64,000 nt of DNA. Origin: Nitrososphaerota archaeon. Its GTDB lineage: Archaea > Thermoproteota > Nitrososphaeria > Conexivisphaerales > DTJL01. The notes under the pieces are model-generated. The model was not told where the DNA came from and did no database searches. It was given only the letters and a program-made list of their open reading frames with translations. The translations under genes and the position numbers were made by a program. Positions 6,782 through 55,103 of this stretch are shown in pieces. Numbering within the stretch: the first letter of the stretch is position 1; each line of letters starts with the position of its first letter. The DNA is taken from the NCBI GenBank assembly GCA_021324115.1, contig JAJPJS010000016.1, positions 76,376 through 140,375 on the forward strand, written 5' to 3'.

Positions 6782-6871
6782 GAAAATTTTCCAAGTTCTG
6801 TAAGCATTTTCTTAATAAATTATGGGTCATAGTAATATTTATAAGCGCTCAACGTTTTTGTGCAGCTTCAC

Positions 6872-8533
6872 ATGAGTGAGAAGCCTACAGAAAACACTGT
6901 CTCTGATGCTTCTATACCTGCTTCTGCAACCATGGGACGACAAGGCAAACTCCGGAAAGTTCTGAGCATGCAGGATCTGTACTTCCTGTCACTGGGTGGC
7001 ATTATCGGTTCAGGATGGCTGTTCGGCTCACTGAGTGCCGCAGGTGTAGCAGGCCCTGCAGCCATATTTTCCTGGGTCATTGGTGGAATATTCGTACTCA
7101 TCATCGCCCTCACCTGGGCGGAACTTGGTGGAATGATGCCTTCTTCAGGTGCGCTCGCGAGGGTGCCTCAGGCCGCGCATGGGTACTTTGCAGGATTCTA
7201 CTTCGGCTGGGCGTATTTCGTCTCTGCTGTCACTGTACCGCCTGTCGAAGCCATAGCCATCATGACTTACGCAACCTACTACATACCGAGCTTAACCAAA
7301 GGCGGTGTCCTTACACCTGAAGGATACGCAGGGTCCATCCTAGTCATGGTGCTGCTTTTCCTGGCAAATTACTTCGGCATAAATATCTTCCGCAGATTCA
7401 ACACCGGTATTACCTGGTGGAAGCTGGTCATACCTTCTATCACCGTAATACTTGCGATCGCACTTTACTTTACCCTGAATAACTTCACGGGATACCAGGG
7501 TCTTGCACCATTCGGAGCTCCACCAGTGTTCTCGGCAATAGGTACAACCGGAATCGTCTTCTCTTACCTCGGATTCAGGCAGGCCATAGACTATTCTGGC
7601 GAAGCGAAGAACCCGGCCAGGGATGTACCAAGGGCAACGATTCTCTCTGTCGTGACTGGAATAGTTCTCTATACGCTTCTTCAGGTTGCCTTCATCGGCG
7701 GCATAAAGTGGAGTGCGTCCGGCGTTACGGCGGGAGATTGGGCGAGTCTATCAACCAGCGCGAGCAGTGTGTACACAACCGCCCCCTTCGCGGAAATATT
7801 CGCGGTCGGTGGACTTACCATATGGGCCGCAATCCTACTTCTGGATGCCGTCATTTCTCCGGCAGGAACGCTCGGAGTCTATACCGGAACATCCGCAAGA
7901 ATACTGTTCGCACTTTCAGAAGGTGGTCATCTCGGTACCAAAACAGGCGAAGTCCACGAAAGATACAGGATTCCATGGGTGGCTCTCATAGCCAGTCTTA
8001 TCATCGGAATCGTCTTCCTGTTTGCATTCCCCGCATGGGCGCCACTTGCGACAGTTGTCACTTCTACAACAGTCTTCACCTACCTTGCCGGAGCCACGGC
8101 CCTTATGTCGTTGAGGAAGACAGCTCCTGAAATGAGGAGACATTTCAGACTTCCTGCCGCAAGCATCATCGCTCCACTCGGATTCATAATGGCCAGCCTG
8201 ATTGTCTACTGGACCACCTATCCTTACACACTCTATGCATTCATAGCAATCATACTTGGACTGATACTGTTTGCAATCGCACGCTCCCGGGGCGCATACC
8301 CTGTCAACGATATAGCAAAAGGATCATGGATAGTCGTCTACTCAGCCGTGATGGTTGTTCTTTCCTACGTGGGCAGTTATGGACAGGGTTACATTCCATT
8401 CCCATACGATTTCGTCGTAGTGGTCGCGGTCGCACTGATATTCTACTTCTGGGGTACCAGGAGCGGATACGAGACCGAAGACCTCAAGGCGTTGAAGGCC
8501 GCTTCGGCGGCTCAGTCGCAGGCTCAACCTTAG
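6872..8533 (+). CDS. APC-superfamily amino acid permease
   Basis: About 12 TM protein with a typical APC N-terminus, LSMQDLYFLSLGGIIGSGWLFGS. The ORF opens at GTG 6860; the first ATG is at 6872. Confidence 0.8.
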   Translation: MSEKPTENTVSDASIPASATMGRQGKLRKVLSMQDLYFLSLGGIIGSGWLFGSLSAAGVAGPAAIFSWVIGGIFVLIIALTWAELGGMMPSSGALARVPQAAHGYFAGFYFGWAYFVSAVTVPPVEAIAIMTYATYYIPSLTKGGVLTPEGYAGSILVMVLLFLANYFGINIFRRFNTGITWWKLVIPSITVILAIALYFTLNNFTGYQGLAPFGAPPVFSAIGTTGIVFSYLGFRQAIDYSGEAKNPARDVPRATILSVVTGIVLYTLLQVAFIGGIKWSASGVTAGDWASLSTSASSVYTTAPFAEIFAVGGLTIWAAILLLDAVISPAGTLGVYTGTSARILFALSEGGHLGTKTGEVHERYRIPWVALIASLIIGIVFLFAFPAWAPLATVVTSTTVFTYLAGATALMSLRKTAPEMRRHFRLPAASIIAPLGFIMASLIVYWTTYPYTLYAFIAIILGLILFAIARSRGAYPVNDIAKGSWIVVYSAVMVVLSYVGSYGQGYIPFPYDFVVVVAVALIFYFWGTRSGYETEDLKALKAASAAQSQAQP

Positions 8534-10098: not shown

Positions 10099-11358
10099 TT
10101 AGACGAGCGTCTTCCGGATAAGGTCAGAAAATTCTTGCACGAAGGTCTCCCATTCGGCTAGGAGGTCGTAGTCAAATCTGACCTTTCCAGCAAACATCGG
10201 TATAGTGCTCTGCTTGTAGCCCGGAGGTGCCGTAAGGTCGAAGCGGAGAGCATCTTCTTTTCTTCCTGCTCCAAAGTTGGGGTATAAGAGTAGAATACCA
10301 TCTGCTCCATATTGGGAGGCGTAGGCGTACATCTGGTAGACGTCAGAGGATTGGATATCAATGGCTGTCTCAATTTCCTTGTACTTTGTATCAACTATGA
10401 AGCGTTTGCCATCGATGTCAACGCGTATATCCGGGATCATCTCGAAGTAGTTGCCGCCTGCTGAGGTGGAAGCGAGGTGACCAATGGACTGCTGGCTCAT
10501 TACTTTAGCTCCGGGCAGAATCCACTTCTCTTTGGAAAGGAGTGAAGCCACGAATTTCTGAAACAGTGACTCCATCGGAATTACGAAGGTGAATGTCTCG
10601 AAATTCGACTGCTGTGGTGATACTCCCGAATGATCCAGAAACAGCTTGCTGAGTTCGATGAATGGCTTGTACTGCTCGTTGAGACGAGAGAAGGTAATCC
10701 CTTCGATCTGTTGGATGTCTACCGGTGCCAGCGTAACGCCGTCCAGTTCTTCAACTATGTTGCGAAGCCTGGAGAAGGTGAAGTCTTGGGAGACTGTGCC
10801 AGAGAGAAGGTGGCAAACGTACCTTAGGGTTCGATTCAAGGTATTGTCTACAGTCCTCCCGTTGTAGATGCAGGGTATTCTGTGCATGGTCGCTGGGTTC
10901 GTGTAATGGCCGAAGTCGATACGGCCCTTTATGGAGCCTAAAACCTGCTCAACTACCTTGTATTCCCTGTATGGCTGGTCCTGGAGAGTCTCTTGCAAGC
11001 GCTTGGCGAAGATGTAGATGATTATCTCAAGGATGTTAAAATCCTTGATAGTTGAGAGATCCGCTGAACCTAACTCAGATACGTCAAAGTATTCTGAATA
11101 GTCGAGCATCTTTAGGAGATTTTTGGCAACAAGTTCTCGGTTCTGCTCGATGTCCTGTTCCTTGTAGATCTTGGGCAAGATTTCGATGTTTCTTTCACTC
11201 ACCTTAACAACCCCAACCCTGTTCTGCGGAATGATCTCTCCCGTGGCGTATTTTACCTCAATCAGTGGCGGCTCGCTTCGTAGAAGTGCCTCTACCTCGC
11301 GATGTGTCAGCCTGTCCTTCGGAACCCGTTTGTATTCAAAGAGCGAGATAGTATTCAA
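10099..11358 (-). CDS. mcrC: McrC-like PD-(D/E)xK nuclease subunit
   Basis: 419 aa. The C-terminal nuclease core, MIPDIRVDIDGKRFIVDTKYKE, fits D...D-x-K. The TTG start overlaps the stop of the upstream GTPase gene (TTGA), which suggests translational coupling. Confidence 0.7.
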   Translation of the reverse strand: MNTISLFEYKRVPKDRLTHREVEALLRSEPPLIEVKYATGEIIPQNRVGVVKVSERNIEILPKIYKEQDIEQNRELVAKNLLKMLDYSEYFDVSELGSADLSTIKDFNILEIIIYIFAKRLQETLQDQPYREYKVVEQVLGSIKGRIDFGHYTNPATMHRIPCIYNGRTVDNTLNRTLRYVCHLLSGTVSQDFTFSRLRNIVEELDGVTLAPVDIQQIEGITFSRLNEQYKPFIELSKLFLDHSGVSPQQSNFETFTFVIPMESLFQKFVASLLSKEKWILPGAKVMSQQSIGHLASTSAGGNYFEMIPDIRVDIDGKRFIVDTKYKEIETAIDIQSSDVYQMYAYASQYGADGILLLYPNFGAGRKEDALRFDLTAPPGYKQSTIPMFAGKVRFDYDLLAEWETFVQEFSDLIRKTLV

Positions 11359-13703
11359 GGAAGCGATGCAACCGCCTTAAGAAATTCGACAAAGTCGTCC
11401 TCGGAAACAGTGTCGGGATCCTTCAGTACGAAGGTGAAGTTGTTCCTTTCCGAGGGGGGCTCCTCGAATATCGTGGGGTTCTCCTTGAGGACCTCGTAGA
11501 ATTTCCGGCCGTTATTGTAGAAATATTCATCGAGAAGGGGAATTATCTCGTACCACCAGATTCGCTTCAGCGCCCGAATGGCGTCGGACCTCTGAGTATG
11601 GTCCCGAAGCTTAATGAAGTAAGCATGGCCTATCTGATGATTCCTATCATATTTCATACGCAGCCTATTGTTCAGACCTTTGAGACTTCCCGTTATCGCT
11701 TCTCTAATGTCTTGAGGGACGAGGCGAAGCTCTTGCTCAAGGATTTTATAGTCGGGCAGTAATTCCACGAACCTGAAGCGTCTGCGGAGAGCGACGTCAA
11801 TTAGAGCGATACTCCGGTCGGCCGTGTTCATGGTTCCTATAATGAATAGATTGGGAGGGATCCCGAACCCAGGCGACTTCGATGAATAGGTGAGGGGAAC
11901 TATGATCTGGTTTTCCCTGGTGAGTCGCTTATCGGCTTCTAGTAGGGTAATCAGTTCCCCGAAGATCTTGGAGATGTCGCCCCTGTTAATTTCGTCAATG
12001 ATCAGATAGAACTTGTTTTGGTCCTTCTTCGCTTCAGCCTGGACCCTCGACTTCTCTTCAGGCGAAAGAGCAAGGAGGGACTTGGAAGTGTCCCAGGTCT
12101 TATGGATTGCGGCGCTATCCAGCAGAGCGTTCAGCGCCTCCATGCAGAACGCCTTGAACTTCCCATCTTTGACCTCGAAGGCCAACCCACCGCTTGGATT
12201 GGGGTTGGGCCGTATGCCTTCAATGAATTCTTCGTAGCTGTAGGAGGGATGGAAGGTGATGAACATCTTCCTGTTGTCGTCGATTGTCTCAACGAACTTG
12301 AGAGCAGCGTAGGTCTTTCCTGTTCCTGGTGGGCCGTATAGAATTACCTGGGAGGCTGCCTCAAGCGCCTCTTTGATCTTCTCTGTTGTCGGATCAGGAG
12401 GAGTTGTGTTGGTGGGACCACCACTGAAGAACGGAAGATTCTGCTCAGATACCGACCTGTAATACTCATTAATGATTGCAACGAGCGGTTCAGGAGCTCG
12501 CGTAAGATAAGCTCCCTGGTTAAGATCAAGGTTCTTGTCAAAGAATATACTATCGTTCGACTTTGCGTAATAGTCTCTTAATTCGGTCTCTTTCGTACGC
12601 CGCAGATCAAACCATTTGATCGGAGGTGTGAGTTCAGTGTAGTCATAAAGCTCGACGTGATATCCATCCGTAGGACCGTTCGAAGTCCAATCCGTTCCTT
12701 GAGGTATCGTGAAGGTCGTGTGTTCCGCCTTTACTTTGGAAACTCCAAGGAAGGTATTTGAGTCCTGACTCAAGTGAAGAACGATATCCCCCGGTTTGAC
12801 CTTCGTCATGTTCTCCCACCTACGTTGATTTCCCGACTTCTGAGGCGACCAGAGACTCTTTCCAAAAGCGGTTTCTGGAAGGCCTGGTTGCTCCAGCTTA
12901 TGTTTCGACTGAGTGGCCTTTTCGATCCACCAGTTTGGTCCAATCTGACCTGCACCTTCAGATGAACCGGCTCCTCTATTGGCATCTCCCTTGCGTTTCT
13001 TCTTCCATCCAGGTTTCATTGATTCGTCGTATAGGAATTTGGAATATTCCCAAGTGGTCACGCCTGGGCGGAGTTTCTCTTTGAATTCGAGAAGTCTCTC
13101 TCGTGTTTCTATTACCTGTTCCCCAGGGGTTTTGTTGGTCAGATCGTCCCTTGGAATTCCGAGGTAATCCATTATCATATACCGATCCCGCAATGACAAT
13201 ACGGCTAAATTCTTGTCAGGCGCATATAGGTAAAGAAGGCCATTTAGGATTACGGCTCTATTTCCCGTGATATAGTTCCGCTTTCCCTTGTTTAGGTTAT
13301 AGATCTGATTGATGAGCTCGACCTGCTTCGCCTTGTCCTGGGCCCTGAAGAGTTCATCAATCTTGGACCTAATCTCGACATTAGCATGAATACTTTCAAG
13401 CGCCTTCAGAATGTTGTCCTTCACCATCCCTGTTCTTGCAACCGGAATTATCTCCATTCCTGGGACCTTCTCTGCACTACTTTCTAGAAGCCTCAGAATT
13501 GGGGCCATTTCGCTTTGAGGAATTGTCTGAAGTTGTTCATTCATCATTTTGGACTGCCAAAATTTCTTGAAGTAAACACTCTGATCCATCAATAGGTTAA
13601 TGGTTCTTTGTTCACGGGCTGAAAATTGATCATGGAACTGCTCGAAGACAGCTTTGATCTTTGCAAGATCGCCCGAATCTTTTTCTTCGCCAGCAGTTTT
13701 CAC
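11355..13703 (-). CDS. mcrB: McrB-like AAA+ GTPase with long N-terminal extension
   Basis: 782 aa. The McrB-type core is present: ILYGPPGTGKTYA (Walker A), FYLIIDEINRGDISKIFGEL (Walker B), NLFIIGTMNTADRSIALIDVALRRRF. It is preceded by about 430 aa with no NTPase motifs. Confidence 0.8.
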   Translation of the reverse strand: MKTAGEEKDSGDLAKIKAVFEQFHDQFSAREQRTINLLMDQSVYFKKFWQSKMMNEQLQTIPQSEMAPILRLLESSAEKVPGMEIIPVARTGMVKDNILKALESIHANVEIRSKIDELFRAQDKAKQVELINQIYNLNKGKRNYITGNRAVILNGLLYLYAPDKNLAVLSLRDRYMIMDYLGIPRDDLTNKTPGEQVIETRERLLEFKEKLRPGVTTWEYSKFLYDESMKPGWKKKRKGDANRGAGSSEGAGQIGPNWWIEKATQSKHKLEQPGLPETAFGKSLWSPQKSGNQRRWENMTKVKPGDIVLHLSQDSNTFLGVSKVKAEHTTFTIPQGTDWTSNGPTDGYHVELYDYTELTPPIKWFDLRRTKETELRDYYAKSNDSIFFDKNLDLNQGAYLTRAPEPLVAIINEYYRSVSEQNLPFFSGGPTNTTPPDPTTEKIKEALEAASQVILYGPPGTGKTYAALKFVETIDDNRKMFITFHPSYSYEEFIEGIRPNPNPSGGLAFEVKDGKFKAFCMEALNALLDSAAIHKTWDTSKSLLALSPEEKSRVQAEAKKDQNKFYLIIDEINRGDISKIFGELITLLEADKRLTRENQIIVPLTYSSKSPGFGIPPNLFIIGTMNTADRSIALIDVALRRRFRFVELLPDYKILEQELRLVPQDIREAITGSLKGLNNRLRMKYDRNHQIGHAYFIKLRDHTQRSDAIRALKRIWWYEIIPLLDEYFYNNGRKFYEVLKENPTIFEEPPSERNNFTFVLKDPDTVSEDDFVEFLKAVASLP

Positions 13704-14560: not shown

Positions 14561-17500
14561 TTGCCCAGATACAAGTCGACCGGCGAGGCGCTCAGGATAA
14601 TTTCGAATAAGGAGCAGATCAGGAATTTCGGTGTCATAGCTCACGTTGACCATGGGAAATGCATAGACGGGGATTCACTCGTTACCCTCACCACCGGTGA
14701 AATGTGCCCCATAAAGGAGCTATATGCAAATCAGAGAAGCAAACAGGAAAGGGTGCCAATCGAAGGCGGCCTGATGGTCGACTCGATGAATCCAGGTACA
14801 ACAAGGATAGAAGACAGACCCGCAACTGCCGTCTGGAATCTCGGTTCTGAGAGTCTGGTCGAGGTTTTGCTGGAGGACGGAAGATGCGTCAGGGTGACCC
14901 CGGAGCATCCCTTCTATTCTCTGTCCTCGTCAGGCTTCCTGGTGGCCAAGGAAGCGCGGAACCTGCGGAAGGGAGATTCGGTTGCAGTCGCAGGGGTTTT
15001 GAAGAGTGTGGGCTCGGACATTGACGACCTCAAAGGAGAAATCCTTTCGAAACTCGCCAAAAACAGGAACTGGACCGCGCACCCTGGTAATGTGTTCTAT
15101 GGCGCATTTTCGCAGGCTCTACCGGCCTCTCACTCGTCAGAGAAGGTTGTTGGCCAGCTTGTGGGCGAAGACAACGGGAAATCCGGTGATGAAAAACACG
15201 AAGTCGGGTTCAAACTTTCCGAACTGGTCGACATTGCCGCTCGAACTGGGATATCCGCGGGCAAGCTGTACGACATGATAGATTCAATAGAATATGATTC
15301 ACCGGTCGGCGGCAATCACGCCGGTTCGGGCGATCTCAGGCTGCCGAAGACTATCGAGGAATTTCGGGAACTTTTCTACCTTGCAGGACGATATTGTGCA
15401 CGGTATAGTACTCGGGACCTCGCATCTGGAAGGCACATCGAACTCGGCAGGTCAGGTGACCTATCCGATGACTTTCTCCGGATTCCATCGGCGGCAAACG
15501 GGAATATTTCCAAGTCGGACGGCCATCTGAAGCATACTTTGTTTAGATTTTTCAATGATATATTCGGATTCTCTGGCGCACGAACGGAAGCTTTAACCAG
15601 GATACCCAGGGTGATATCGATATCCCGTAACGAACTTCTAGCCTGGTTCCTCAGGGGCCTGTTTGATATGCATGCCAGAGTCGATCCGGAAAAAGGCCGC
15701 ATTTCATTTGTCACAAAGTCAAAAATACTCGCCGAAGAGGTGTCACTTTTACTGTTGCGGTTTGGTGTCTCAGCCATCAGGTCGTACAGGGGTTCTCGTT
15801 ACACGCTCCTTATTTCTGGAAAAGAAGCCTTCCTTTTTGTCGAAAGGATAGGCTCCGGGGTGGCTACCAGGCGCCCACAGCTGGAAAGTTTGACCAAAGG
15901 ATCCGCCAAGAACAGGCAGGACCCCATACCGATAGGCGTGGCAGAGCTGAAGACCGTAAGGGTCGTTGTCGGACTTGACAGCACTATAAGTGAGATGCCT
16001 GATTACCGATTCCTGGAAAAGGGCCAACGACGGATAACGCCGTCAGAACTGAAAAGTATGATTACCGTATTCGAGCGACAGCTGACCCAGAAGGAAAAGA
16101 TTCGGGAGAAGGCTTTGGTGCTCGAATTTGTGTCCAGAAGCACCGGAAAGAAACATTCACCACTCAGACCCCCACTCGAAAAGCATCTCTCTGAAGCCTT
16201 GCTTGATCAGCTCAAGGCCGACGGCCTTGTAAAGCGCTCGAAAAACACTGTTCATATCACCCCCTTTGGTAAGGATGTTTTGAACGCCTGGAGATCTATC
16301 ATCTCCGGGGACGATTCCGTGGTAGCAAGGATACAGACCATCCTCATGCAATGGAAGGCCCTGTCAGAGGGCGAAGTGAAATTCAGGAAGGTCAGGTCTG
16401 TGGAAGCCAGGTCAGGCGTTTTCTCTGTTTACGACCTGACCGTTCCGGAGACCCACACCTATATTGCAAACGGAATAATCGTCCACAACACCACCACAAG
16501 CGACAGCCTTCTCGCTGCCTGCGGCATGCTGTCCCCGAGCGTAGCCGGTCAGGCCCTCGCCCTTGACTATATGCCTCTGGAACAGCAGCGTCAGATGACC
16601 ATAAAGGCTGCCAACGTGACACTGTACTACGAGCATGACGGAACTCCTTATGTTTTCAACATGATAGACACGCCGGGGCACATCGACTTCACGGGCAAGG
16701 TCACGAGAAGCTTGAGGGCTATCGATGGAGCCGTAGTCGTTGTAGACTCGGTAGAAGGTGTGATGACCCAGACGGAAACCGTGACCAGGCAGGCCCTTGA
16801 AGAGAGGGTGCGGCCGGTGCTCTACATCAACAAGATAGACAGGCTGGTGAAGGAGCTCCGTCTGACCCCAGACAAGATGCTCTCCTGGCTTGCTAACATA
16901 ATAGGCGAATTCAACAACCTGGTGAATCTGTATGCCGAGCCGGAGTTCAGGGACAAATGGAAGGTGAGCATCCAGGACAACAGCGTCGCGTTCGGCAGTT
17001 CGAAGGACAAGTGGGGTTTCAATCAGACGATGGCCGCCAGGTCCGGCATCAAATTCAAGGATGTCTACGACGCCTACACAACTGGTGACCCGAAGACCCT
17101 GGCTGAAAGGTCTCCCCTTCACGAGGCGATACTCACGATGGTGATCAAACACCATCCCCCTCCTCACGTTGCACAGGGGTACAGAATCCCCAAGATATGG
17201 AAGGGTGACCTGAACAGCGATGTAGGCAAGGCTCTCCTTTCCTGCGACGAAAATGGTCCCACCGTGATGATGGTTACAAACGTTGTCGTTGACCCGCAGG
17301 CAGGAATCGTGGCCACCGGAAGGCTGTTCTCCGGCACGGTAAGGGATGGAGATTCTGTGTACCTTCTTGACGCCAAGAGGGAGGGCAGGATACAGAGTGT
17401 GAACATGTACATGGGGAACGTAAGGGAGATGGTGGGGGCGCTACCCGCCGGTAACATCCCAGCATTGCTGGGGTTAGAATACGCCCGTTCTGGCGAAACA

Positions 17501-18583
17501 CTCAGCTCGGTCAAGGGAATAGTACCATTCGAGGGAATAAAGTACGTCTCCGAACCGGTTGTCACGGTGGCGATCGAGGCAAAGAACCCGAGGGACCTGC
17601 CCAAGCTTGTCGACGCACTGCAGAAGATGCACATAGAAGACCCCAACCTGATTGTAAAGATAAATGAAGAATCGGGCGAAACACTTCTGTCTGGAATGGG
17701 TGTCCTGCATCTCGAGATAGCCACCACCCTGCTTCAGGACCAGGGACTGGACATTGTTACAAGTCAGCCGCTCATCAACTACAGGGAGACCATTCAGACC
17801 AAGGCCGGTCCCATAATGTCAAAGAGTCCGAACAGACACAACAAGATATACATTAGGGTGGAACCCCTGCCCGAAGAAATCATAGCCAAGATAAGAAGCG
17901 GCGAGATAAGCGAAACCGCTGACAGAAAGGGGATCGCAAAAATGCTCAGGGATATGGGGTGGGACTCGGACGAGGCGAGAAGTGTGGCTGGCGTCGACGA
18001 CAAGGGGAACATGCTGCTCGACCAGACAAAGGGAGTACAGTTCATGCAGGAGTCGATGGACTCCATCCGCGCTGGCTTCGATGATGTGATGAACAACGGT
18101 CCACTCGCATATGAATACTGCAGGGGCGTCAAAGTTGTCATTCATCACTTCGTCCCGCATGAAGACCCTGCCCACAGGACCTACGCGCAGCTGATGCCTG
18201 CGGCGAGGAGGGCGATACTTGGTGCGATGCTGCTCGCCCAGCCAGTACTGCTGGAACCCATACAGGGTATTGAGGTCAAATGCGGGGTGGACCAGATTGG
18301 GGACGTCACGAGGGTACTTTCCAGCAAGAGAGGAAAGCTTCTGAACATAGATCAGAAGGAGGTTCTTGCGATAGTTGAAGGAGAAATTCCAGCGGCTGAA
18401 ACGTTTGACCTCAGCGAGGTGATGAGAGGTGCTACGGCAGGCAAGGCGGTCTGGAATATTCATTTCAAGTCCTGGAATCCACTACCTGTCTCACTGCAAA
18501 AATCGGTCGTCACACAAGTAAGAAAACGGAAGGGGCTGCCAGAGGAAGTACCACCGCCAACCGACTTCATAGATACGGAATAA
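14561..18583 (+). CDS. fusA: translation elongation factor 2 (aEF-2) precursor containing an intein
   Basis: The exteins read ...IRNFGVIAHVDHGK|TTTSDSLLAACGMLS...MIDTPGHIDF...YINKIDRL...HEDPAHR... and total about 730 aa, as expected for aEF-2. The apparent start is TTG, with an in-frame TGA two codons upstream. Confidence 0.92.
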   Translation: MPRYKSTGEALRIISNKEQIRNFGVIAHVDHGKCIDGDSLVTLTTGEMCPIKELYANQRSKQERVPIEGGLMVDSMNPGTTRIEDRPATAVWNLGSESLVEVLLEDGRCVRVTPEHPFYSLSSSGFLVAKEARNLRKGDSVAVAGVLKSVGSDIDDLKGEILSKLAKNRNWTAHPGNVFYGAFSQALPASHSSEKVVGQLVGEDNGKSGDEKHEVGFKLSELVDIAARTGISAGKLYDMIDSIEYDSPVGGNHAGSGDLRLPKTIEEFRELFYLAGRYCARYSTRDLASGRHIELGRSGDLSDDFLRIPSAANGNISKSDGHLKHTLFRFFNDIFGFSGARTEALTRIPRVISISRNELLAWFLRGLFDMHARVDPEKGRISFVTKSKILAEEVSLLLLRFGVSAIRSYRGSRYTLLISGKEAFLFVERIGSGVATRRPQLESLTKGSAKNRQDPIPIGVAELKTVRVVVGLDSTISEMPDYRFLEKGQRRITPSELKSMITVFERQLTQKEKIREKALVLEFVSRSTGKKHSPLRPPLEKHLSEALLDQLKADGLVKRSKNTVHITPFGKDVLNAWRSIISGDDSVVARIQTILMQWKALSEGEVKFRKVRSVEARSGVFSVYDLTVPETHTYIANGIIVHNTTTSDSLLAACGMLSPSVAGQALALDYMPLEQQRQMTIKAANVTLYYEHDGTPYVFNMIDTPGHIDFTGKVTRSLRAIDGAVVVVDSVEGVMTQTETVTRQALEERVRPVLYINKIDRLVKELRLTPDKMLSWLANIIGEFNNLVNLYAEPEFRDKWKVSIQDNSVAFGSSKDKWGFNQTMAARSGIKFKDVYDAYTTGDPKTLAERSPLHEAILTMVIKHHPPPHVAQGYRIPKIWKGDLNSDVGKALLSCDENGPTVMMVTNVVVDPQAGIVATGRLFSGTVRDGDSVYLLDAKREGRIQSVNMYMGNVREMVGALPAGNIPALLGLEYARSGETLSSVKGIVPFEGIKYVSEPVVTVAIEAKNPRDLPKLVDALQKMHIEDPNLIVKINEESGETLLSGMGVLHLEIATTLLQDQGLDIVTSQPLINYRETIQTKAGPIMSKSPNRHNKIYIRVEPLPEEIIAKIRSGEISETADRKGIAKMLRDMGWDSDEARSVAGVDDKGNMLLDQTKGVQFMQESMDSIRAGFDDVMNNGPLAYEYCRGVKVVIHHFVPHEDPAHRTYAQLMPAARRAILGAMLLAQPVLLEPIQGIEVKCGVDQIGDVTRVLSSKRGKLLNIDQKEVLAIVEGEIPAAETFDLSEVMRGATAGKAVWNIHFKSWNPLPVSLQKSVVTQVRKRKGLPEEVPPPTDFIDTE
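14660..16489 (+). mobile_element. intein (610 aa) with LAGLIDADG-like endonuclease region, inserted in the EF-2 P-loop
   Basis: It starts CIDGDSLVTL (block A), contains RVTPEHPFY (block B, TxxH) and ends THTYIANGIIVHN, followed by Thr+1. The internal segments FYLAGRYCARY and LAWFLRGLFDMHARV resemble LAGLIDADG blocks. Confidence 0.9.
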
Positions 18584-20163: not shown

Positions 20164-22374
20164 GTGAATTTCAGATTCACTTACATGAGCTTCGACTTCA
20201 AAACATTTAAGTGGCAAATCTCTCCTTTTCAGAATTATCCAGGTGAGGGAGAAGTGAACCGGCTCTGCCGCATATGGGGAGCGACCGTCTTACTATTGTT
20301 GCTGCCTTTATCTGGTGTTGTAGTTCCACACGCCACGTCTGCCTCGCCTATTGTCGTGGGAACAAACATTAATCAATGCGGTTCTGGTCTCTCTTCCTGT
20401 GCGGTCACAGTTCCTAGCGGTGGAACAACATACATGTATGGAGCAACAGAAGGGGGCTCGTACAACATCGCGGCAATCAACTTTAACCAGGACGTGGCTG
20501 AGACGAACCAACAAAACCTACAGAGCGTAGTGATCGGTCACTCCTCAAGCAATACCGGAACATTCAACCCGGGAGGAGCACTGTATCCAATCATTGGCGG
20601 AATAGGGGTCACTTCCAGCCCAATTCAGACCTTCACATTCGCAAACAAGGGCGCTGGAAGCATATCAGGGACGTTCACTCTCAATCAGGATTCGCTTGTG
20701 GTCCTCGTAGCAGCATCCTCACAAAACAATGCTCCAGCTACAATTTCGAGCCCATTCACGGTTGACCAGCAGATGACCAATACAAATTGCAACTACGGTG
20801 TGGGTTGCGGCAGTGTGGTGTTGGCGCACGGTTCATTTTCATCAGGGCTTCAATCTTTCAGTTTGACACTAGTGTCAAGCTATGGTCTGTACGACCCGAC
20901 ATCTGCGGCGATTGGGGTGGTGCTCTACGTCTTCTCTACTACGCCTAATCTGCCGCCCACCGCCACATTGTCTTTTCCAAGCGGCGAGCCATTACTGGGT
21001 CAACAGTACAATGTCGAGGTCACCATTACGAATCCCAATCCTGTTCCTGAAACCTATAGTATCTCTGTGACTCAGGATTGTGGAGCATGCACGCTGCAGG
21101 GATCCCTAAATTGGCCATCGTGGGAAGACTTTCTTGGGCTCCCGAGTCAATGGCCCACCAACCCTGGATGTTCGGGAAGTTCTAGTTCCACTACGCCGGG
21201 GGCACTCTCTGTTCCTCTATGCTCCGACTCTCCCCAAAGTGTTACGGTCGCAGCTGGAGGCACGAGCACTCTGACCTTTTCCTTCACAAACACTTGGGCT
21301 TGGATTGCTCCCTTCAAAGCCACCACCATAATAGGTGAGGTTCTCAGTGCACTCATCGAGAATGGCGCTCCTGATTGGGCAACAATTGGGAACGTTCTGC
21401 TCGGGGGCACCGCGACTGTATTCACAGAGCAGTTCCATTTCAACGTACTGTCAAGTGGGAATAGCATCGGATGCTATGAGGGCCTGTCCAGCACCTGCTA
21501 TGAAACGGTGACAGTCCCGTATACTAAATTGGCGGCTTTTGGAGTAAGTCTTGCTGCCGGTGCAAGTGACGGAGACATGACCTTGGCTGGCATTTATCTT
21601 TGTGTGACCGGCCTTGGCTGCTCCGTGGGAGGTCCGGCGATATTGGTCCAGGCAGGACTGATAGCAACTCAAAGCATATCATATGCTGCTGCCGCAGACC
21701 CTAGCCAGGACTACACAACTGTGGTTGTGCCTGCACCAATGACTTTGGCCAATGGGACAAAGTTCGTCGACCTTCCTTCTGTGTTGTCAGCGCCCCCTCA
21801 ATGGAGGAGCGCGCTGGATACATTCGCACAATTCTATTCGTATAACAATGCTACAGCCATTTCTGAGGAACGGTATTATGGAGCGCTCGCTGTCGGAGCT
21901 GATACTTATGCGAATATTCAGCTTCAAGCTATCTTGAGCTATTCTTCGACCAGGAATAGCTACATGTCCTCTTTTTCAAATCAGCTTGGACCACTGTTGT
22001 CGGAGCTGCCGACGCTGAACTCATCAGAGCTCCAATCTGTAGACAACTACCTGAACACCAACGGTCTTCCCCCTGAGGAGGTCCAAGTTTTGGACGGTTT
22101 GGGCTTGGGAAGTTCGGTGCCAGGAGTACTAAAGGGCGATTTGGGGTACAATGTCACGACTCTTAATAGCGTACCTGAGAGTACCGAGCTGAGTTTGATG
22201 CTGCAATCACTTGTCAATGAAGCAAATGCTTGGAACTCGTTGGTGACTCAACCCACCGGAGTGCCAGAGTTCCCTACAGGACTCTTCGCCCTGCCCGTGG
22301 TTGCGGTACCGCTCATAGTGGCATTTAAATCGAGGCGGGCTAAGCGCCATAGGTTCTCTGGGTCTGCTAATTGA
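20164..22374 (+). CDS. large secreted surface protein with PEF-CTERM-like anchor
   Basis: 736 aa. A signal-like segment (RIWGATVLLLLLPLSGVVVPHATSA) is followed by a Ser/Thr/Gly/Asn-rich body with many N-x-S/T sequons. The C-terminus is GVPEFPTGLFALPVVAVPLIVAFKSRRAKRH. The start is uncertain (GTG 20164 or ATG 20185). Confidence 0.7.
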   Translation: MNFRFTYMSFDFKTFKWQISPFQNYPGEGEVNRLCRIWGATVLLLLLPLSGVVVPHATSASPIVVGTNINQCGSGLSSCAVTVPSGGTTYMYGATEGGSYNIAAINFNQDVAETNQQNLQSVVIGHSSSNTGTFNPGGALYPIIGGIGVTSSPIQTFTFANKGAGSISGTFTLNQDSLVVLVAASSQNNAPATISSPFTVDQQMTNTNCNYGVGCGSVVLAHGSFSSGLQSFSLTLVSSYGLYDPTSAAIGVVLYVFSTTPNLPPTATLSFPSGEPLLGQQYNVEVTITNPNPVPETYSISVTQDCGACTLQGSLNWPSWEDFLGLPSQWPTNPGCSGSSSSTTPGALSVPLCSDSPQSVTVAAGGTSTLTFSFTNTWAWIAPFKATTIIGEVLSALIENGAPDWATIGNVLLGGTATVFTEQFHFNVLSSGNSIGCYEGLSSTCYETVTVPYTKLAAFGVSLAAGASDGDMTLAGIYLCVTGLGCSVGGPAILVQAGLIATQSISYAAAADPSQDYTTVVVPAPMTLANGTKFVDLPSVLSAPPQWRSALDTFAQFYSYNNATAISEERYYGALAVGADTYANIQLQAILSYSSTRNSYMSSFSNQLGPLLSELPTLNSSELQSVDNYLNTNGLPPEEVQVLDGLGLGSSVPGVLKGDLGYNVTTLNSVPESTELSLMLQSLVNEANAWNSLVTQPTGVPEFPTGLFALPVVAVPLIVAFKSRRAKRHRFSGSAN

Positions 22375-53261: not shown

Positions 53262-55103
53262 TTGGAACCGGATTCGCCGGATGCTCAAGTCGTGCAGCTA
53301 CAAAAGGTAGCCTCAAGGATAGGCGCTTCCCTCGATGGCATCGAGCGCGACGTGCTGAGGGAAGTGTCGGAAAGACTACAGCTTTGTGACTGCGATGGAA
53401 TTTCGGAGCTGACAGGCTGGGGTAGGCGGCAATCCGCCCGGATCGTAAAATTCTACTTTGAACTTCAAGCTGGGTCCTCCGAGAGACGAATACTGAAAAG
53501 TCCGGATGCAAGACGACTTGCGAAAGAAATACTTGAGCTCTTCTCGAGAAGAGCTTCGTCTCCGCTCGGCCGGAATCTTTTCCTGTTTTTGGCCCCATCC
53601 ATTGATGGCAGAATCATACAGGAAAGGCAGAATACAATCCGGTCCGTTCAGAAAGATCTCGGGCTACTGTCGGCTGACGCGATAAGGAAACTCAGGGTAG
53701 AGCTGGCTTCCCTCTCAATCGAGGGCCGTTCTAGGAAGAGGCAGGCTGCTATAGACGCCCCGATAATAGAGCACTACCTTGTCAGAAGGAAAATAATCGA
53801 CACAGCACTGCATCTTATGGATTCAACTCCTGAGCTATCACGACTCTTTTCAGATTCGGAAAGGAAGCTACTTGATGAAATAAGCAGGACCCTCGAAGAG
53901 TACTCAGGTTCAAAGATTGAGGATGCGGAGGCAATAATTTCAGATGCGGAACTTTCGATAAACGAAGAGTTCAGAAAAGCAAGACCGGACCCTGAAAGGG
54001 CGCGCAGTATCGTCCAGTCCCAGATTGATATCGTAACGAACTCGTTGAACCTGACCCAGGAAGAGGAATCCGCATTGAGGCGGGCGGCACTCGAAGGAAT
54101 GTCGGTGCCCTTTGAATTCGACAGGATAACCGTGAACCGTATTGTAGATCAATGGCAGGAGCGCATGGCTAGGGAAAGAGAACGGCGAATCTCTCTTGTT
54201 GAACAGAAGCTAATGAAATTCAGAAATGAATTGGAGAAGATCATACGAAGGTTAGTTTACGTTGATTTTTCCCTTGCAGTAGCCGAGCTCTCACAAAAAC
54301 ACAAGCTCAAATATGCCAGACTGGGCAGGAATGGCATTTCGTTTCTCAAGGGAAAGAATCTATTTCTTCTCGAGACGCTGGAAGGAAAGAGCGAAGTTGA
54401 ACCGGTCGACTACTCCATAGGTAGGACCAATTTACCTGTGGGAGCTAAACCGAGGAATGTGGTGATGCTGACAGGTGCAAACAGCGGGGGAAAGACCACT
54501 CTGCTGACAACAACGGCTTCCATCCATATTCTGACACTTTTTGGTCTCCCGGTCCCAGCCGAGGATGCCGAGGTGACCCCGATGCCAGTATACCTGTACA
54601 GGCGCAGGGTCACAAAAAAGATCGGAAGCCTGGAACAGGCACTGGGCTCTCTGATCCTGATATTCGGGGATAGGAGAAGAAAGCTGGTTCTTATGGATGA
54701 ATTCGAAGCCCTGACCGAGCCGGGTGCGGCCGGAAGAATACTGGCCGGAATCATAAACAAGGTAGCTGCGACCAGCAGCCTGCTTCTCCTGGTAACCCAT
54801 CTATCAAGAGAAACGCTCCCCCATGTAAAGTTGCCAATCAGGGTGGACGGAATCGAGGCCAAGGGACTGGATACAAATGGTGAACTGATAGTAAAGCGGC
54901 AGCCTGTCTTTGACCACATCGGTTCCAGCACGCCAAAATTGATAATCATGAAACTGGCGAACAGCTCGAAGGGAAAGGGAGGGGAATTGTATAGAAGCCT
55001 GCTTTCTTCCCTCGAAGATGAAGGGTCGACCCCCGTTCAGACCCCGATTGCGCTGCCCTGGCTCTCCGAAGGCGCACCTTCTTCTGGAGAAAATGGTATG
55101 TGA
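53262..55103 (+). CDS. MutS-related ATPase (MutS domain V only; no recognisable mismatch-binding or Smr domain)
   Basis: VVMLTGANSGGKTTLLTT (Walker A), LVLMDEFEALTEPGAAG (Walker B), LLLVTHL. It has a long coiled N-terminal half. TTG start; start uncertain. Confidence 0.7.
   Translation: MEPDSPDAQVVQLQKVASRIGASLDGIERDVLREVSERLQLCDCDGISELTGWGRRQSARIVKFYFELQAGSSERRILKSPDARRLAKEILELFSRRASSPLGRNLFLFLAPSIDGRIIQERQNTIRSVQKDLGLLSADAIRKLRVELASLSIEGRSRKRQAAIDAPIIEHYLVRRKIIDTALHLMDSTPELSRLFSDSERKLLDEISRTLEEYSGSKIEDAEAIISDAELSINEEFRKARPDPERARSIVQSQIDIVTNSLNLTQEEESALRRAALEGMSVPFEFDRITVNRIVDQWQERMARERERRISLVEQKLMKFRNELEKIIRRLVYVDFSLAVAELSQKHKLKYARLGRNGISFLKGKNLFLLETLEGKSEVEPVDYSIGRTNLPVGAKPRNVVMLTGANSGGKTTLLTTTASIHILTLFGLPVPAEDAEVTPMPVYLYRRRVTKKIGSLEQALGSLILIFGDRRRKLVLMDEFEALTEPGAAGRILAGIINKVAATSSLLLLVTHLSRETLPHVKLPIRVDGIEAKGLDTNGELIVKRQPVFDHIGSSTPKLIIMKLANSSKGKGGELYRSLLSSLEDEGSTPVQTPIALPWLSEGAPSSGENGM

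Follow-up and report, generated by a model that had tools for sequence, protein, structure and literature searches.

An intein with a degenerate LAGLIDADG endonuclease at the P-loop of an archaeal elongation factor 2

A 64-kb stretch of contig JAJPJS010000016.1 from a Nitrososphaerota archaeon, referred to here as the window, contains a gene for elongation factor 2 (EF-2) that is interrupted at the P-loop of its GTPase domain by an in-frame insert of 610 codons. EF-2 is essential and highly expressed, and every molecule of it would need the splicing out of 610 amino acids. What is this insert, and how can an active EF-2 be obtained from the interrupted gene? The explanation that we hold with high confidence is that the insert is a real class-1 intein, vertically inherited, which removes itself from the precursor to give active EF-2 and whose endonuclease is most likely dead.

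The interrupted EF-2 gene and its spliced product

The open reading frame (ORF) of the EF-2 precursor is divided as follows.

14561..18583, + strand: EF-2 precursor ORF, 1340 amino acids plus stop, with a TTG start and a match to TIGR00490
14561..14659, + strand: N-extein, 33 amino acids, ending in AHVDHGK, the first part of the G1 motif (P-loop)
14660..16489, + strand: intein, 610 amino acids, from Cys-1 to Asn-610
16490..18583, + strand: C-extein, 697 amino acids plus stop, starting with Thr+1 of TTTSDSLL and containing the rest of the G domain and domains II-V

An earlier note on this DNA had placed a 610-residue intein between GK and T of the G1 motif, and its borders are exact. Translation of 14660-16489 yields exactly 610 codons, running from CIDGDSLVTL to YIANGIIVHN, with ...FGVIAHVDHGK before the insert and TTTSDSLLAACG after it. 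The motifs quoted in that note (RVTPEHPFY, FYLAGRYCARY, FLRGLFDMHARV, and LLDQLKADGLVKRSKNTVHITPFGKDVL) are all found in the translated insert, and the assignment is borne out by Cys-1, the TxxH motif, the terminal HN, Thr+1, and the profile scores given below.

Removal of the insert in silico leaves an EF-2 of 730 residues, the size that had been expected. The spliced product aligns to the archaeal EF-2 profile TIGR00490 in a single stretch (residues 13-718 on profile positions 12-719 of 720) with a score of 855.6 bits, and the precursor including the insert matches in two stretches with 834.6 bits. Both forms thus show a full-length match over the equivalog cut-off of 738.45, and the EF-2 Pfam domains GTP_EFTU, GTP_EFTU_D2, EFG_III, EFG_IV, and EFG_C are all present. 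When the spliced product was used as a query, 12 intein-free relatives with 73-88% identity were retrieved (P0179-P0185, P0187, P0192, P0201, P0242, and P0287). All are exactly 730 residues long, and in all 12 the sequence restarts with TT[TM]SDSLL at the same residue as the C-extein, so that removal of the intein leaves a host protein that is colinear with its intein-free orthologues in both length and junction. The N terminus, MPRYK..., is also common to the relatives of this EF-2. A tblastn search of the 64-kb window revealed neither a second EF-2, as the earlier note had stated, nor a second intein.

Intein-bearing relatives were retrieved with the full precursor as a query; the intein alone, searched through a word index, gave five distant matches and missed its own family. 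One protein in public collections, P0006, is identical to the precursor and is present on 5 contigs, the longest of 931 kb. At the same site, ten further proteins (P0007-P0016, 1256-1353 residues) are also interrupted by an intein, and the precursor can be aligned with them from end to end. Their sources are Conexivisphaerales-type metagenome-assembled genomes (MAGs) and metagenome contigs of different samples; where relatives bear a name, it is that of a Conexivisphaerales (an order of Nitrososphaerota), Nitrososphaerota, or Nitrososphaeria MAG. Selection on the coding sequence was estimated as the ratio of nonsynonymous to synonymous substitution rates (dN/dS) in two independent pairs, the window against P0007 (locus L001, 89% identical) and P0010 against P0012. 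The C-extein gives 0.011 in the first pair and 0.01 in the second, and the interrupted gene is therefore a working EF-2 gene under strong purifying selection, not a pseudogene.

These observations bear directly on the idea that the insert is not spliced at all. The locus would then be a disrupted pseudogene, or a chimera produced in assembly, and another gene would supply the working EF-2. The visible part of the genome amounts to 64 kb, which leaves room for such a gene. Against this, the reading frame is unbroken for 4 kb, the 10 independent relatives have the same architecture, the identical protein recurs on several contigs, selection acts on the interrupted gene itself, and all of the splicing residues are conserved. 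We regard this explanation as highly improbable.

The GC content at third codon positions (GC3) is lower in the intein (0.577) than in the exteins (0.665), a difference that fits a foreign origin or a weaker selection on codon usage. Five long antisense ORFs lie inside the EF-2/intein gene on the - strand (15376-15777, 16412-17167, 17164-17727, 17794-18141, and 17819-18463). They probably arise mechanically from the high GC3 of the sense frame (0.58-0.66).

The insert as a class-1 intein

The domains of the intein, as delimited by profiles and a structural model, are the following.

14660..15019, + strand: Hint N-terminal splicing region (Hint-N), intein residues 1-120, with Cys-1 as block A and T80-P-E-H83 (14897-14908) as block B; TIGR01445
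15020..15349, + strand: helical/beta insert between Hint-N and the endonuclease, residues 121-230; secondary structure of the model
15350..15859, + strand: LAGLIDADG endonuclease core, catalytically degenerate, residues 231-400; LAGLIDADG_3 and fold of the model
15380..15406, + strand: LAGLIDADG motif 1, LAGRYCARY, with Arg instead of Asp or Glu at position 8
15650..15676, + strand: LAGLIDADG motif 2, LRGLFDMHA, with His instead of Asp or Glu at position 8
15860..16099, + strand: helical region after the core, residues 401-480; model
16100..16303, + strand: winged-helix-like segment, residues 481-548, consisting of a helix, a disordered loop, a helix (512-520), a beta hairpin (524-533), and a helix (535-548)
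16304..16489, + strand: connecting helix and Hint C-terminal splicing region (Hint-C), residues 549-610, with block F VYDLTVPETH and block G IIVHN; TIGR01443

Profile searches with the insert detect both splicing ends and the endonuclease above the curated cut-offs, which is the check that the earlier note had proposed. Pfam Intein_splicing scores 79.4 bits (E 3.4e-22; cut-off 35.8), the N-terminal profile TIGR01445 scores 48.9 bits over residues 1-86 (cut-off 24.5), LAGLIDADG_3 scores 43.5 bits over residues 326-398 (cut-off 22.5), and the C-terminal profile TIGR01443 scores 38.2 bits over residues 590-610 (cut-off 15.6). These scores are far beyond chance.

An alignment of 21 EF-2 inteins shows that Cys-1, Thr-80, Pro-81, Glu-82, His-83, and Asn-610 are invariant and that Asp-592, His-599, and His-609 are nearly so. 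Cys-1 of block A directly follows HGK. Block B (VTPEHPF, with T80-P-E-H83) is invariant in the family and also in the inteins of DPANN archaea. The C-terminal end, ...VYDLTVPETHTYIANGIIVHN/T (a slash marks a splice junction here and below), places His-609 and Asn-610 immediately before Thr+1.

An AlphaFold2 model of the intein, built on the 21-intein alignment, has a mean predicted local distance difference test score (pLDDT) of 81.8 and a predicted template modelling (TM) score of 0.82, with pLDDT values >90 over both Hint halves. The best matches in the Protein Data Bank found by Foldseek are PI-TkoII (2cw7, E 2.4e-16), PI-PfuI (1dq3, E 2e-15), and TliVMA (7qss), followed by many mini-inteins; the Hint fold superimposes on many mini-intein and Hint structures with root mean square deviations of 2.0-2.6 Å. 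For PI-PfuI and PI-TkoII the target-normalised TM score is 0.57 at a sequence identity of ~15%. They too consist of a Hint domain, an extra domain, and a LAGLIDADG core. Both are active endonucleases, whereas the intein in the window has no catalytic acids and possesses a further, winged-helix-like module on the C-terminal side; the hosts also differ, being ribonucleotide reductase for PI-PfuI and DNA polymerase for PI-TkoII.

Between Hint-N and the core, the insert at residues 121-230 contains the motif LYD.I..I.Y...LP, which is common to EF-2 and aIF5B inteins. Its position, together with the whole-model Foldseek matches, suggests a similarity to the "stirrup" domain in inteins of the PI-PfuI type. 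The core itself shows the alpha-beta-beta-alpha-beta-beta-alpha arrangement with two LAGLIDADG helices in the model (residues 232-250 and 324-338, each with the sheets that follow). Because the profile cut-offs, the splicing residues, the restoration of EF-2, and the model all agree, the insert is a class-1 intein by all features that can be tested in silico.

We infer that splicing actually takes place, with indirect support from the extein dN/dS of 0.01, and it would proceed by the class-1 route. The only EF-2 gene of the window would be translated as a 1340-residue precursor in which the P-loop AHVDHGK/TTT is split by the intein, and EF-2 would be active only once the intein has excised. 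Cys-1 would form a thioester, which would be attacked by Thr+1, the threonine of the P-loop. Asn-610 would then cyclise with the assistance of His-609, and an O-to-N shift would rejoin GK to T, giving a 730-residue EF-2 and a free intein of 610 residues. The intein has the archaeal PI-PfuI/PI-TkoII architecture with a winged-helix-like module added.

Endonuclease, accessory segments and selection

In an active LAGLIDADG endonuclease, the catalytic metal is bound by an acidic residue (Asp or Glu) at the end of either motif. Position 8 of both motifs was read in an alignment of 82 large inteins at the EF-2 site. The intein in the window has Arg and His at these positions, as the earlier note had seen, and the inteins of P0007-P0015 likewise have no acid in either motif. 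The replacements vary among the relatives, with R, Q, A, N, I, K, T, or L in motif 1 and H, Q, S, K, N, R, or L in motif 2. P0016, a relative of the sister-type loci named below, has N and D and so retains a single acid. In contrast, both acids are present in 64 of the 82 inteins, including nearly all of those from DPANN archaea and the 539-residue inteins at four sister-type loci from soil MAGs (L027, L098, L099, and L108). On this distribution of position-8 residues, the loss of the catalytic acids occurred once, at the base of the clade of the window. Since both metal-binding acids are lost, the homing endonuclease is most likely dead, in line with the decay that had been suggested, and the intein most likely no longer cuts DNA or homes. 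EF-2 P-loop inteins that lack both acids were also observed in two haloarchaeal MAGs (L117, Natronomonas; L118, Halobacteriaceae) and in a member of the Micrarchaeales (L034). These are independent losses, and endonuclease decay at the EF-2 site has therefore happened several times.

Within the clade, mean pairwise identity is 89% for the exteins and 40% for the inteins. The intein average covers 56% in Hint-N, 69% in Hint-C, and 28-34% in the middle regions. Neighbor-joining trees of exteins and inteins are largely congruent, with a Spearman correlation of pairwise distances of 0.77, which fits vertical co-inheritance and not recent homing. The intein would thus have been passed on with its host gene in a Conexivisphaerales-type clade, next to which the extein tree places P0180-P0183 as intein-free sister lineages.

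The dN/dS ratio was determined for each model-defined domain in the same two pairs. Values are given below for the window against P0007 and then for P0010 against P0012, a more divergent pair in which synonymous divergence (dS) is near saturation.

Hint-N (1-120): 0.10; 0.03
Stirrup-like insert (121-230): 0.31; 0.49
Endonuclease core (231-400): 0.75 (p=0.22 against 1); 0.21
Helices after the core (401-480): 0.48; 0.14
Winged-helix-like segment (481-548): 0.26; 0.34
Hint-C (573-610), window against P0007: 0.29
Connecting helix and Hint-C (549-610), P0010 against P0012: 0.07

In the closest pair, evolution is faster in the endonuclease core (0.75) than in the Hint regions (0.10). Taken together, the two pairs are read as showing a constraint on the core that is relaxed but present, and some residual constraint is expected because the domain must still fold for splicing to occur. 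Strictly neutral decay of the core was considered and is only partly supported, with 0.75 in one pair and 0.21 in the other.

The same data can be set against the proposal that non-canonical residues still support cleavage or nicking of DNA and that the intein goes on homing into empty EF-2 alleles. The LAGLIDADG fold is predicted with high confidence, an Asp remains at position 6 of motif 2 (FD) together with nearby acids (RVDPE), intein-free target alleles exist in related lineages, and the core of P0010 and P0012 is constrained. However, both acids are replaced, and variably so, a pattern of relaxed selection at catalytic positions and not of a new active site; the congruent trees give no sign of recent transfer, and the core ratio in the closest pair is high. 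Activity of this kind appears very unlikely to us.

The earlier note had described a winged-helix-like stretch after the LAGLIDADG motifs. The segment does exist, but profile and fold support for it is weak, and it is not special to the decayed state. All Pfam matches fall below the cut-offs; they are to SelB-wing_2 (17.7 bits; cut-off 22.3), HTH_45 (15.1 bits; cut-off 25.5), HVO_A0261_N, and CggR_N. A model of the sub-domain (pLDDT 74.5) contains a helix, a hairpin, and a helix, and its Foldseek matches are nearly all winged helix-turn-helix regulators of the MarR, PadR, and CggR types, at a best E of 0.04 and a TM score of ~0.45. We lean towards a winged helix. P0016 lacks the segment in the family alignment, and P-loop inteins of SRP54 with intact LAGLIDADG acids carry the same one. 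The most plausible view is that it was an accessory of an ancestral endonuclease and did not arise through decay. A gain specific to this clade and tied to domestication was largely rejected, given that the segment is shared with SRP54 inteins whose endonucleases are intact.

Domestication of the intein as a whole is a separate matter. The intein might control elongation through conditional splicing or, released 1:1 with EF-2, might act as an abundant protein that binds DNA through its stirrup- and winged-helix-like modules. Both of these modules are under purifying selection despite the lost acids, and the intein has kept its 610 residues without shrinking to a mini-intein, although at least 18 inteins of 172-204 residues show that mini-inteins occur here. 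Novikova et al. (PMC4760082) make the case that selection may have retained P-loop inteins, and for a P-loop intein of RadA conditional splicing is reported (PMC4513877, PMC5790916). On the other hand, Cys-1 is the sole invariant cysteine in the 21 EF-2 inteins; no conserved Cys partner for it was found in this family, and there is therefore no obvious redox switch. The occurrence of the winged-helix-like module in SRP54 inteins suggests an inherited accessory rather than an acquisition. Constraint is expected for any inserted domain whose misfolding would block the maturation of an essential protein, and the intein-free 730-residue alleles of close relatives indicate that the intein is dispensable. 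We consider domestication unlikely. In the reading that we prefer, an intein that splices, has most likely lost its endonuclease activity, and is inherited vertically, we infer another reason for persistence: the affected P-loop codon is essential, and probably nothing but a precise in-frame deletion could take the intein out.

Several points weigh against a self-removing, vertically inherited intein with a dead endonuclease. The search for a second EF-2 covered the 64-kb window, and an intein-free copy could lie elsewhere in the genome. Threonine at the +1 position is a less common nucleophile than cysteine or serine. The intein-free P0179 falls inside a clade with 100% support that contains all intein-bearing members except P0016, and the history of the clade therefore includes a loss of the intein or a later gain; the tree would be compatible with a precise loss in the P0179 lineage, the exact place of which is given by a grouping with P0015 at a bootstrap of only 65%. 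The core ratio of 0.21 in P0010 and P0012 is non-neutral, in a pair with dS near saturation. The constraint on accessory segments that take no part in splicing (0.26-0.49) could mean a retained function, and the loss of canonical acids is no strict proof that all nuclease or DNA-binding activity is gone.

Related P-loop inteins and neighbouring genes

The occupancy of the site was surveyed by a DNA scan for AH[VI][DH]HGKC in one genome per species (GTDB set), from which 120 loci were listed, so that the counts are lower bounds. At least 104 matches have the EF-2-like context IRN....AH..HGK. Three of these, the bacterial loci L028, L032, and L037, have AHIDHGKCTLADRL with a Cys right after GK, contain no intein, and have ORFs of normal length or short ones; judged by their sequence context they look like LepA. 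At least about 100 archaeal EF-2 genes, each from a different species genome, have a Cys directly after GK at the same position. Their hosts include Woese-, Pace-, Nano-, Iain-, Aenigm-, and Micrarchaeota, Halobacteriales, Thermoplasmata, Methanomassiliicoccales, Hadesarchaea, and others. Both intein ends lie inside the fetched stretch in at least 83 genes, and the 83 listed inteins measure 172-204 (18 inteins), 270-320 (4 inteins), or 472-551 residues (61 inteins). With 610 residues, the intein in the window is longer than all of these complete inteins, of which the largest has 551. At one Micrarchaeota locus (L091, contig CAYMAH010000017.1) the junction of N-extein and intein start occurs twice, in a full 1239-residue ORF and in a near-identical 60-residue fragment that may be a duplicated remnant.

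The EF-2 P-loop site is thus widely occupied in public archaeal genomes and is not new, and any novelty that the earlier note had allowed for it falls away. InBase is reported to list an EF2 intein of Methanopyrus kandleri. Our literature searches found no paper describing an EF-2 intein. P-loop inteins are a recognised theme, with "aIF2" among the hosts, and EF-2 is outside the top 15 archaeal intein hosts (PMC4760082).

The other archaeal EF-2 P-loop inteins, including those of soil "Bathyarchaeota BA_x" MAGs, have the identical insertion point, AH[VI][DH]HGK/C...HN/T[TA]..D, with Cys-1, a terminal HN, and Thr or Ser at +1. They share Hint-N, the LYD.I..I.Y insert, and the LAGLIDADG architecture with the intein in the window at 23-32% identity. 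Most of them keep both acids and are shorter, in the large and mini-intein size classes given above, whereas the clade of the window has lost both acids and has an extra winged-helix-like segment of ~55-70 residues, which is absent from P0016.

The earlier note had mentioned P-loop inteins in aIF5B/IF2, and positions 28-474 of the corresponding profile, NF011418, match the intein in the window with 128.5 bits. In these inteins (NF011418/PRK14845) the homologous G1 position of a paralogous translational GTPase is split as GHVDHGK/C...HN/T[ST]LLD. They rank near the top for the N-terminal two thirds of the intein in an exhaustive phmmer search, with 25-31% identity. Leaving aside the inteins of its own clade and of the sister type, the intein in the window resembles aIF5B/IF2 inteins about as closely as it resembles other EF-2 inteins. 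The aIF5B/IF2 inteins differ in their host and in having mostly canonical acids. Among the best N-terminal matches is P0031, an aIF5B of 1119 residues with a P-loop intein whose LAGLIDADG motifs, YYIAGVLHANVV and FLRGLFDAKGCV, are degenerate. If P0031 came from the lineage of the window, that lineage would have two translational GTPases interrupted by related inteins, each with a dead endonuclease.

The inteins of SRP54 (P0036, P0037, P0038, P0043, and P0058) interrupt the G1 motif of another GTPase as GK/C...HN/TT. Their C-terminal half, comprising the core, the winged-helix-like stretch (L..L...G[LI]...T..G), and Hint-C, aligns with residues ~292-610 of the intein at ~31% identity, but their acids are intact (GDGH and FDCDG) and they have a different N-terminal insert domain. 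These sequence comparisons suggest that the P-loop inteins of EF-2, aIF5B, and SRP54 form a single modular family. Among proteins of known structure, the C-terminal splicing region is matched best in sequence by the RadA P-loop intein of Pyrococcus horikoshii (2LQM/4E2T, E 9.5e-10). It likewise splits an NTPase P-loop; its splicing is needed for host activity, and conditional splicing is reported from experiments (PMC4513877). In contrast to the intein in the window, the RadA intein is a mini-intein without an endonuclease.

For inteins at the P-loop of translational GTPases, the EF-2 intein provides a useful example from nature. A single site offers what looks like a dated series of the homing cycle, with active endonucleases in sister lineages and DPANN archaea, full-size inteins here whose endonuclease is most likely dead, and mini-inteins and empty 730-residue alleles elsewhere. 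The site is common to aIF5B and has a used analogue in SRP54, which points to an intein family that exploits the conserved GK/T codons of GTPases. Current understanding is unchanged by this; the value lies in a well-characterised example and a possible source of a Thr+1 splicing domain.

Other features of the window are a 736-residue ORF without a Pfam match (20164-22374, + strand) and a 613-residue ORF with only a sub-threshold match to MutS_V (53262-55103, + strand; 24.3 bits, cut-off 30.2). Just upstream of EF-2 lies a McrBC-type restriction pair (10099-13703, - strand), which consists of a 419-residue McrC (Pfam McrBC, 208.7 bits) and an AAA_5 ATPase of 782 residues that is McrB-like and has no Pfam match over its first ~430 residues. 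At locus L001 of the relative P0007, genes for a CLC channel and a thiolase are followed by only small ORFs before EF-2. Because of this difference, the McrBC pair and an amino-acid permease gene (6860-8533) look like an insertion in the lineage of the window.

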